The notes under the pieces are model-generated. The model was not told the DNA's origin, searched no databases, and was given only the letters and a program-made list of their open reading frames with translations. Both the position numbers and the translations under genes were made by a program. Positions 1,574 to 3,574 of a stretch of DNA of 4,631 bases are shown here, one piece after another (the first letter of the stretch is position 1; every line of letters begins with the position of its first letter). The DNA is from a virus (lineage: Monodnaviria; Loebvirae; Hofneiviricota; Faserviricetes; Tubulavirales), in the IMG/VR virus record IMGVR_UViG_2667527953_000022. The stretch is one strand, 5' to 3'.

Positions 1574-3574
1574 TCAGGGACAGTTATTGTCACAAGTCCA
1601 AGGGTCGGCTTCGCCGCCCCCACCCGCCGCGCGGGAGCGCGTCGTGCGGTGCCGTGAAGCCGACGAAATAAACACAGATTCATAGCTGCTGCCGCTTCTG
1701 GCTTCCTCTGCGCGGATTTTTTCTGAGGGGGTCATACGGCGGACAACACAACCCATAAAACGGGTTATGACCGGAACAGGGCCAAACATGAAACCGGAAA
1801 TCACCGGTGCGCAGGGTTCACCGTAACGGTTAATACGGGGCTTACCACCTTCCTGCGGCTGAACGTAAAACGGACGAAGCAGACGTTCAGAACAGAAGAA
1901 ACCGCCGTTCAGCAGGATATAGGTCCGGAAATCGCCTGCATCACAGGCCATGCGGATGGCTTCCAGTTCGGCGACCTGCTGCGGCGTGAACTGCTGCATA
2001 TTGATATGATGCGCCTCAAGCGGTGCGCGGAAGCTGCGCATCTGGCGGTAAGCCGTGACGGACGGAACGCCAAAGAACTGGAACAGGCGAAGGCGCGTTG
2101 CTTTCTGCCAGCAGGCGGCACGGCTGACGGCATCACAGAATGAACGGGCAGAATAACGGTCATTCAGGGCGGTAATACCATCCGCACTGACATCACCCGC
2201 CATTTTGGTGATGTACTTCACGATGTAACGGAAACCATCACCCTTTTCAGGGTCAATAGCCTCAATACAAATACGGTGCTCTTTCGCCCCCTTTTCATCC
2301 GGCTCATCGCGCATGGCCTCTTCACGGAAAATGGCCAGCACCGTTGCGCTCTCATGGGGATTGCAGTAAATCAGGAAATTCCAGTGCGTTGTACCGTCAG
2401 CATGAGGCTCGACCGTACGCAGGCCGGGTATCTGAATACCGGCTTTATCCAGTCTGCGGCAGACCCGACGCCAGACGGTATTCAGCCAGGCGTGCGAATC
2501 CTTAACGGTCGGGCAACCTGCTTCCCACCATTTTTTATTCGGACGAGAATGCCATTTTCCGGCAACATTAAAACTGGTCGTCGGGTGAAAACGTGACGGC
2601 GTGGTGAGCACGATGAAGTAACCGGACAGCCCCATATCTTCGGACAGTTCACAGACGGCCTTTCCACGAACGCAGAGTTCAGCAATCCGGTTTTTCGGAT
2701 TCGAGACTGAGGCGTTATGCGCATCTTCCAGCGTACAGACCAGCTCATTAAAGGCATCAAAGACGCCGGAGGACCGGAGATACTTTTTCACGCGTTTACT
2801 GCGGACAGCAAACAGGTCACGATGCCAGTCAGAAATATAAGGCGCGTTGCGGTTCAGTATGCCGAGCATGCGATAGACCTCATTAACCCGCTGGTCACGG
2901 ACAACCCGCAGGAAACGGGTGACAAAAGCCAAATCAGTCAGACGCTTAAGCAATCCCTCATCGCCGTAACGCTCATGATAAGTGGCATAAACGGGTGCGA
3001 AATCAAAGCCGGAGATGGCCCGAAAATAGGCCATCACATTGAGAAGGTGATGCTCTGGTACATCACTATAAATGGCCCGGGAAACAAGGCAGTCACGAAC
3101 AACCGAATCAGCCACCTCAGCAAGCTGTTCATCAGTGCAGAAAAGCGAGAATTCATAAGGGTCTCCGTCCTGATTGAAGAAAGCAAAACGGTGCGCGGAC
3201 TCAAGCGCCATCAGCGCATTTTTCACACCGAGCTGATAAACAAGACGGCAGAAAGCGTGTGCCACGGTGAACGAAAACGAGCCAAACTGTGAAACCAGTC
3301 CGGCAGCCTTACCCCTGTCAGCGAGAGATAAATCCGTGCAGTTAATTCCGTAAATCACACGGTCAACCTGCGTGTTACGCGGCAATGCGAGCTGTGCAGA
3401 TAAGGTCCCGACCTCATCACGATACTGGCGGGAAAGCGTGGAAAGGTTGCGGGTGGCAACATCGCGCTCAGTCCGAAAATGCTCGCGTTCGGACAGCGTC
3501 AGGCAGGGACGACTAAGGGCAACGGATGCCGCGTCGATGGCGTTATACGCTGTGAGGATGGTTGATTCAGTCAT
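1574..3574 (-). CDS. Rolling-circle replication initiator (HUH-type endonuclease), phage P2 gpA / phiX174 A family, 666 aa
   Basis: Long ORF with three family motifs. Motif 1 [13 protein letters not shown] (about 2579..2617) resembles P2 gpA FITLTAPSKYHPT. The motif-2 region [16 protein letters not shown] has H-W-N at 2378..2386. Motif 3 RYIVKYITK has two Tyr spaced YxxxY (codons 2225..2227 and 2213..2215). The start is taken as ATG 3574..3572, preceded by GGGAGAGGAG and overlapping the upstream ORF stop as ATGACTGA; the track ORF extends to a TTG at 3676 with an implausible W-rich extension. Confidence 0.85.

Follow-up and report, generated by a model that had tools for sequence, protein, structure and literature searches.

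The 4,631-nucleotide (nt) stretch of DNA analysed here (the window, taken as a whole) is IMG/VR virus record IMGVR_UViG_2667527953_000022, placed in the Tubulavirales. Nearly all of its genes lie on the minus strand, among them rep (1574-3574, minus strand), which encodes a 666-amino-acid (aa) rolling-circle replication initiator of the gpA family (PF05840), as judged from the open reading frame (ORF) and its translation, from Pfam, PHROG and RefSeq matches and from an AlphaFold2 model. The 3' end of rep carries a GC-rich hairpin (1604-1664, minus strand) and, immediately 3' of it, a predicted plus-strand origin core, CTTGGACTTGTGACAATAACTGT (1580-1602, minus strand, rep-sense), recognized by its homology to the annotated nick sites of phages P2 and 186. 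We hold with good confidence that the window is part of an E. coli filamentous prophage, integrating next to hipBA near dif, whose replication depends on a two-tyrosine initiator of the His-hydrophobic-His (HUH) superfamily and on an origin composed of this hairpin and core.

Rep matches the Pfam model PF05840 (Phage_GPA) at 165.5 bits (E value 2.1e-48, cut-off 31.4) over aa 207-457, corresponding to profile positions 73-316 of 321, and PHROG 91, described as 'nicking at origin of replication', with an E value of 1e-127; a match with such values is far beyond chance. Reference proteins score 415 bits (P2 A), 210 (phiX174 A), 413 (PM2 P12) and 364 (VFJ Rep) on the same model. The IKe gene II protein, representing the Ff type, matches PF05144 (Phage_CRI) and PF05155 (G2P_X_C), neither of which was matched by Rep in the Pfam scan. 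Comparison of Rep with IKe gII by BLASTP gave an E value of 1.8, which is no detectable pairwise similarity, and PF23343, a small core model shared with Ff/IKe gene II, scored 15.8 bits with Rep, below its cut-off of 27.8. A sequence search of Rep against PDB chains produced no match, and an NCBIfam scan returned no family for Rep or the neighbouring proteins. Among phages, tblastn with Rep found 382 records, every one below 60% identity, with VFJ ranking first (29.5% identity across 85% of Rep), ahead of PM2 and the P2/186 group; a search of 1.84 billion representatives yielded 1,903 relatives at E <= 0.001. RefSeq names and precomputed Pfam matches already imply this family assignment, and gpA-type Reps are already known in inoviruses from the fs2/VFJ group. 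Rep belongs to a known family and is unremarkable within it but for two small peculiarities, and nothing here amounts to a new kind of system; what is added here, modestly, is an origin prediction, the frame-independent conservation of the origin core and a variant (H-U-N, where U is hydrophobic) of the metal site.

The catalytic motifs were located by alignment with reference enzymes, and all residue counts given for representatives are alignment-based and refer to 153 of them drawn from an exhaustive search. Motif 1 (2579-2617, minus strand; aa 320-332, with a predicted strand at 317-323) aligns with P2 FITLTAPSKYHPT (FITLTAPSKYH) and follows the pattern hydrophobic-x-LT-x-PS...H; T324, P326, S327 and H330 are each kept in at least 143 of the 153 representatives, and H330 in all of them. 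Motif 3, RYIVKYITK (2204-2230, minus strand; aa 449-457), contains the predicted catalytic pair Y450 (2225-2227) and Y454 (2213-2215), four residues apart on a predicted helix (448-459). In a six-protein alignment, with numbering checked on the reference records, these residues fall on Y450/Y454 of P2 and Y343/Y347 of phiX174, and both are invariant (153/153).

Motif 2 (2366-2410, minus strand; aa 389-403, with a predicted strand at 396-404) aligns with P2 EPHHDGTPHWHMMLF and reads H397-W398-N399, the Asn (codon 2378-2380) standing in place of the second HUH histidine. All reference enzymes in the alignment carry H-x-H at this point, and Rep does not display the literal His-hydrophobic-His of the superfamily. 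H391 and H397 are retained in Rep; H397 is found in 153/153 representatives, and the H391 position is sometimes occupied by Asn or Gln. At position 399, 143 representatives have His and ten have Asn, the latter including four lineages outside the clade to which Rep belongs. Within this clade, which spans E. coli, Salmonella, Providencia, Xenorhabdus and Morganella, every close homolog that covers the motif has H-W-N, from 98% down to 41% identity. The idea that H-W-N marks a dead gene was rejected on this clade-wide conservation, and the pattern of substitutions argues for a recurrent, selected metal-site variant and not for decay. H-W-N leaves membership of PF05840 unaffected, since that family is defined by its profile.

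A preliminary description of the window had proposed an initiator of the P2 gpA/phiX174 A type and not of the Ff gII type, with the three motifs of superfamily I initiators at 2201-2617 and two tyrosines one helical turn apart. The family placement is borne out by the significant match to PF05840 and the missing matches to PF05144 and PF05155. The range does extend from motif 1 through motif 3, with all three of the quoted strings present in the 666-aa ORF, and alignment to P2 gpA and phiX174 A puts the YxxKY pair, on its predicted helix, exactly at the catalytic position. The observation of the three motifs is confirmed, with the reservation that motif 2 is the variant H-W-N and not H-U-H.

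An AlphaFold2 model of Rep, built from a 42-sequence alignment, is confident, with a predicted local distance difference test score (pLDDT) of 89.2 and a predicted template modelling score (pTM) of 0.86, and its only disordered segment comprises residues 629-666. Searched against solved structures, the model gave a weak match to the nuclease domains of adeno-associated virus Rep (E 0.07); against predicted viral structures it matched a Vibrio filamentous-phage Rep (E 1e-19) and, at a lower level, Microviridae initiators (E ~2e-3). These matches, weak against solved structures, are consistent with an HUH Rep.

The origin core overlaps the last nine codons of rep (PWTCDNNCP and the stop), starting 26 nt before the stop, in phase 1. 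A 20-nt query derived from 186 matched the window at 17 of 20 positions at the core, and none of 200 shuffled sequences gave a match; the full 23-nt core is identical to P2 at 18 and to 186 at 19 positions. Across the window a second copy was looked for and none was found, and the tandem prophages in E. coli have one copy per unit. The P2 reference record places 'nick site at ori' at 29892, CTCG/GAGTCCTGTCAATAACTGT (the slash marks a cut), and the 186 record annotates a rep_origin inside gene A, ...CTCTCG/GAGTTCTGTCAATAACTGT, at the same place as the P2 nick, so that the annotated P2/186 context is CTCG/GAG...TGTCAATAACTGT. By homology, the predicted cut in the window falls on the minus strand, between G1599 and G1598 (CTTG/GAC). 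The core lies in the homologous C-terminal region of Rep and in the same frame, PWTCDNNCP and the stop being placed opposite APRSPVNNCG of P2. In degenerate form it can be written CTYGGA...AATAACTGT.

The core recurs across relatives whose initiators have diverged widely, and its position relative to the rep reading frame changes. In the window it is inside rep in phase 1 (23/23 by definition). In the Salmonella diarizonae element (Rep 46% identical) 22 of the 23 positions are kept in phase 2, with the rep stop codon within the core; in four Xenorhabdus elements (Rep 42-45% identical) 21-22 are kept, 195-201 nt after the rep stop; in Providencia 22 are kept, 184 nt after the stop; and in Vibrio VFJ 20 are kept, overlapping the stop. 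The cores of PM2, P2 and 186 agree at 18-19 of 23 positions and lie 209-428 nt inside rep. Other E. coli elements also keep at least 21/23, as do the Salmonella and Xenorhabdus elements although their Reps are only 42-46% identical. In the nucleotide alignment the core appears as a sharply bounded island of about 27 nt, CCTTGGACTYGTGWCAMTAACTRTCSC, between unalignable flanks. Because relatives read it in another frame or leave it non-coding, the core is conserved as DNA and not as peptide, and a C-terminal protein motif PWTCDNNC was rejected on the same grounds. As a separate observation, the nick-proximal hexamer is tandemly duplicated in Xenorhabdus szentirmaii (~9035-9063, CCTTGGACTCGGACTCGTGACAATAACTGT), which therefore has two possible nick contexts. 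The preliminary description had suggested that the nick site might lie within 1574-3574, and a scan of rep does find a close match to the P2/186 sites there, at 1580-1602 on the rep-sense strand. However, only the last nine codons are involved, and an origin inside rep is not a property of the clade, since the core straddles or follows the rep stop in sister lineages.

Directly 5' of the core, and still within rep, is the hairpin at 1604-1664, whose single-stranded DNA (ssDNA) folding energy is -30.6 kcal/mol (z = -5.0), a value reached by none of 200 shuffled sequences. Of 16 elements folded, most have a comparable hairpin that stops 0-4 nt short of CTTGG or CTCGG. These are the other E. coli, Salmonella, Xenorhabdus, Providencia and Vibrio elements together with 186, where the motif is CTCGG, and their stem sequences are unrelated to one another; in PM2 the minimum-energy fold shows the hairpin only weakly. 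The hairpin is probably a structural or recognition element of the origin. It encodes the Arg/Ala/Gly-rich tail of Rep, and hairpin and core together correspond to the disordered residues 629-666, so this tail is best read as a 'translated origin'.

The first points of comparison are P2 gpA and 186 A (Peduoviridae), which belong to the same PF05840 family and are ~28-30% identical to Rep over the catalytic region. Motifs 1 and 3 and both tyrosines are collinear, to the extent that the P2 numbering Y450/Y454 coincides, and the sites, which share CT(C/T)G/GA...TG(T/A)CAATAACTGT, occupy homologous C-terminal regions on the rep-sense strand and are read in the same frame. The systems differ in that P2 and 186 are tailed double-stranded DNA (dsDNA) phages, whereas the window holds a filamentous ssDNA prophage; Rep ends right after the origin, whereas the A proteins run on for 254-428 nt; motif 2 is H-W-N in the window and H-W-H in P2/186; the origin hairpin is ~60 nt long compared with a 5-7 bp GC hairpin; and the PF05840 score is 165 bits, over profile positions 73-316 only, compared with 415 bits for P2. 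The A protein of phiX174 (Microviridae) likewise belongs to PF05840, with aligned Y343/Y347 and an origin inside rep on the viral strand, but it shows very low sequence identity to Rep, and its motif 2 is interrupted by a large insertion. The phiX174 nick context, CAACTTG/ATATTAATAAC, has CTTG/ and AATAAC boxes in common with the window core. When phiX174 4295-4320, CCCCCAACTTG/ATATTAATAACACT, is set against window 1580-1605, CCCTTG/GACTTGTGACAATAACTGT, the spacing between these boxes is 5 nt shorter in phiX174, and the likeness is one seen by eye only.

Among filamentous phages, VFJ (orf698) and fs2 (orf716), Vibrio inoviruses of the genus Saetivirus, have a gpA-family Rep, VFJ being the nearest match in the phage collection. 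The VFJ origin is laid out as in the window, with a 27-bp hairpin followed by CTTGGACTCGTGTCACTAACTGT, which overlaps the rep stop; VFJ differs in a canonical H-N-H motif 2, in its host genus and structural genes and in three core mismatches. P12 of the corticovirus PM2 belongs to the same family, and gene XII contains a positional homolog of the core, CTTGGAGCACTGAAAATAACTGT, that encodes ...STENNC, although PM2 is a membrane-containing dsDNA virus, unlike the window element. The PM2 record (NC_000867) separately lists a 'cleavage site' at 1489/1490, in the N-terminal part of gene XII, AAGCTTG/CAGAGTTCACAATAAATC, and the core homolog is at 2744-2766; PM2 therefore has two candidate nick sites. 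Gene II of IKe and Ff has the same role as rep, that of a plus-strand nicking initiator, and the same position 5' of an ssDNA-binding protein gene, but belongs to other Pfam families, and the IKe origin is intergenic.

The start of rep is taken as the ATG at 3574. A mechanical ORF list also contains a 700-aa version that begins with TTG at 3676; the shorter form is preferred because GGAGAGGAG precedes the ATG and because RefSeq annotates the 666-aa form, as 'replication endonuclease', in the 95.9% identical E. coli copy. Upstream, an 82-aa ORF (3567-3815, minus strand; weak match to PHROG 3104) has a stop that overlaps the rep ATG by 8 nt, and in E. coli TD225-C4 this ORF is annotated as a coding sequence with the same overlap. 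This arrangement makes translational coupling of the two probable, and it resembles phage 186, whose record states that translation of A depends on orf84. Directly downstream of rep and the origin is a 141-aa gene (1118-1543, minus strand) that matches PHROG 30648, of unknown function, over its full length (E 8e-95); its match to the Pfam model Putative_G5P (E 0.058) is below the cut-off. The gene probably encodes an ssDNA-binding protein, a functional analogue of gene V inferred in part from its location: the orf104 ssDNA-binding protein of VFJ has an equivalent position, and the 141-aa gene occupies the gene V position, although its product is larger than classical gene V proteins (88 aa in IKe).

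On the other side, a 66-aa gene (3949-4149, plus strand; PHROG 2503) diverges from the 82-aa ORF/rep operon. Between the two lie three overlapping imperfect inverted repeats of CATCATGA-like words (3817-3921), which look like operators, and a promoter-like site (3884-3913). In contigs with a 98% identical Rep, a 153-aa HTH_3 regulator is encoded 5' of rep (at 297-758 in one and 1980-2441 in the other). Because the window has the 66-aa gene and the 82-aa ORF instead, the regulatory module is swapped between otherwise near-identical phages, a case of mosaicism.

A megablast search of the whole window against a phage collection gave no match, and against E. coli it gave 114 records, the best 95.9% identical; the element is known there as a prophage only. 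In E. coli TD225-C4 two tandem copies adjoin hipBA, each with a Zot-domain gene and a GspD-type secretin gene, and Zot and secretin genes are likewise found on the contigs with the 98% identical Rep. The window itself has a weak match to a major-coat PHROG at 543-803. The Zot and secretin genes and the tandem copies next to hipBA identify the window as a filamentous (inovirus-type), dif-integrating prophage. The E. coli chromosomal matches end at 4472, beside hipA. The region 4374-4467 contains nested inverted repeats (4374-4386/4455-4467, 4388-4401/4434-4447 and a perfect 14-bp repeat at 4399-4412/4424-4437), with arms that read AGTGCGCACAA-TGACG-TTATGTATAAA and, on the other strand, AGTACGCACAA-TGTGACACGCG-TTATGTTGAAA. 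Both arms resemble E. coli dif, which we take to be GGTGCGCATAA-TGTATA-TTATGTTAAAT; a search for the full 28-nt E. coli dif, allowing up to three mismatches, found none. This attP candidate consists of two more diverged, inverted, half-matching dif-like sites and looks like a CTXphi-type attP, in which the folded single-stranded genome would provide the XerCD substrate.

Several relatives have other surroundings. Clade members at 58-64% identity are located directly 3' of an IS110-family transposase gene (contigs L018, L019 at 1-598 and L020 at 1-533), one 773-aa Rep variant is downstream of a KfrA_N gene, and plasmids account for 18 of 241 E. coli matches. It may be that the rep-origin module also exists outside complete filamentous prophages.

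Like the window element, the phages YpfPhi, CUS-1 and UPphi901 form tandem prophages at dif in Enterobacterales, and their replication module is called 'gene II-gene V' in the passages that describe them (PMC7307601, PMC4266046). The UPphi paper gives the similarity of this dif-integrating enterobacterial module to IKe or M13 as less than 15% (PMC7307601, PMC4266046), and disruption of the YpfPhi replication gene YPO2274 abolished phage production (PMC4266046). The passages on YpfPhi and UPphi contain neither a gpA/HUH-type naming nor an origin location (PMC7307601, PMC4266046), and the terms 'rolling circle' and 'endonuclease' are absent from the UPphi paper.

A plus-strand origin in non-coding DNA, as in Ff phages, has to be weighed, with the core at the rep 3' end having some other role or being a relic. 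Classical inoviruses such as IKe have their viral-strand origin in a large intergenic region, according to record annotation, and the non-coding regions of the window that could serve in the same way (3816-3948 or 4150-4470) contain several inverted repeats. The repeats at 4374-4467 are, however, accounted for by the paired dif-like sites, and those at 3817-3921 are operator-like and lie between divergent genes. No other copy of the core is present in the window, and the core that is present is homologous to the annotated P2/186 nick sites and is conserved regardless of reading frame. An Ff-type origin is in any case not expected, because Rep is not of the Ff type, and we regard this alternative as improbable. 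The hairpin and core might instead serve mainly to control expression at the junction of rep and the gene that follows it, as a terminator, an attenuator or an RNA processing site, a suggestion that draws on the strength of the hairpin and on the constant placement of hairpin and core just 5' of the ribosome-binding site of the next gene. Yet no T-run follows the hairpin, which is not reported by a terminator scan; the invariant part is the 23-nt single-stranded core and not the stem; and the core is homologous to nick sites deep inside gene A of P2 and 186, away from gene boundaries. A role mainly in expression is very unlikely on these grounds, although hairpin and core may have a dual role, as an origin and as an expression signal.

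A different kind of objection concerns the enzyme, namely that rep is an inactive remnant of a defective prophage in which the H399N change abolished nuclease activity. The prevalence of His at position 399 (143/153) and the H-x-H of all reference enzymes speak for it. Against this, H-W-N persists, in intact ORFs, in all close relatives within the clade whose sequence reaches motif 2, even at 41% identity, from which purifying selection on a working protein would follow, and Asn occupies position 399 in four unrelated representatives as well. An amide ligand can stand in for one His in HUH proteins, as in the H-U-Q of circovirus Rep. Rep also belongs to a 90% identity cluster of 2063 members, and the prophage occurs in tandem copies, as expected of active dif-integrating phages. 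Loss of function in this gene seems to us very unlikely.

The favoured reading is a working gpA-type initiator that acts at the hairpin and core. The minus strand of the window is expected to be the packaged strand, because it is the sense strand of nearly all of the phage genes. On this plus, rep-sense strand, Rep would recognize the origin as the hairpin at 1604-1664 followed by CTTG/GACTTGTGACAATAACTGT (1580-1602), with a divalent metal held by H391, H397 and N399. One tyrosine of the Y450/Y454 pair would cut between G1599 and G1598 and become joined to the 5' phosphate, and a host polymerase would extend the 3' OH and displace the plus strand. After one round, the second tyrosine would cut the regenerated origin, so that the first linkage is resolved and a circular single strand released. 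Family membership, the aligned catalytic residues and the anatomy of the origin are results of this analysis; where the cut falls, which residues hold the metal and how the two tyrosines take turns are proposed by homology with P2, 186 and phiX174, the steps themselves following established work on phiX174 A and P2 A.

Several points weigh against this interpretation. Motif 2 is without its second histidine. Nicking, for this element and for its clade, is likewise a proposal by homology, and the P2 nick coordinates on which it draws were taken from GenBank annotation; when the P2 nick sequence was looked for in full-text literature, nothing but unrelated primers matched. The upstream hairpin of P2 does not appear in the minimum-energy fold (z = -0.5), and the hairpin may for that reason be no family-wide requirement. 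Finally, YPO2274 could not be placed by sequence in the clade of the window Rep, the cluster names found being all from E. coli.

When relatives are arranged by core position, the core is coding in the window, contains the rep stop in Salmonella and VFJ, is intergenic in Xenorhabdus and Providencia, and is deeply internal in P2, 186 and PM2. We lean, by a narrow measure, toward a wider reading of this series, in which the plus-strand origin of this clade of enterobacterial filamentous phages is a portable hairpin-core module that drifts across the end of rep, while the clade also has H-U-N, and not H-U-H, as its fixed metal site. If this is true, the drifting-origin series would show step by step how an origin comes to lie within the gene of its initiator, the arrangement seen in phiX174 and P2, and the frame-independent conservation of the core illustrates how an origin and a rep coding sequence overlap. 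The clade-wide H-U-N offers a modest test, made by nature, of the HUH metal site, and if the enzyme is active, the second histidine would be dispensable in a two-tyrosine Rep. The prediction extends to the nucleotide (G1599/G1598) and to a minimal origin of ~90 nt, which could help in building phagemids and, in clinical E. coli, in following these prophages or curing strains of them. The literature on the related dif-integrating enterobacterial inoviruses names this module by analogy with M13, as gene II/gene V, and placement with gpA and phiX174 A shifts what would be expected of these phages: the initiator would use a pair of catalytic tyrosines and recognize its origin in single-stranded form, and that origin would lie at the 3' end of rep and not in a large intergenic region.

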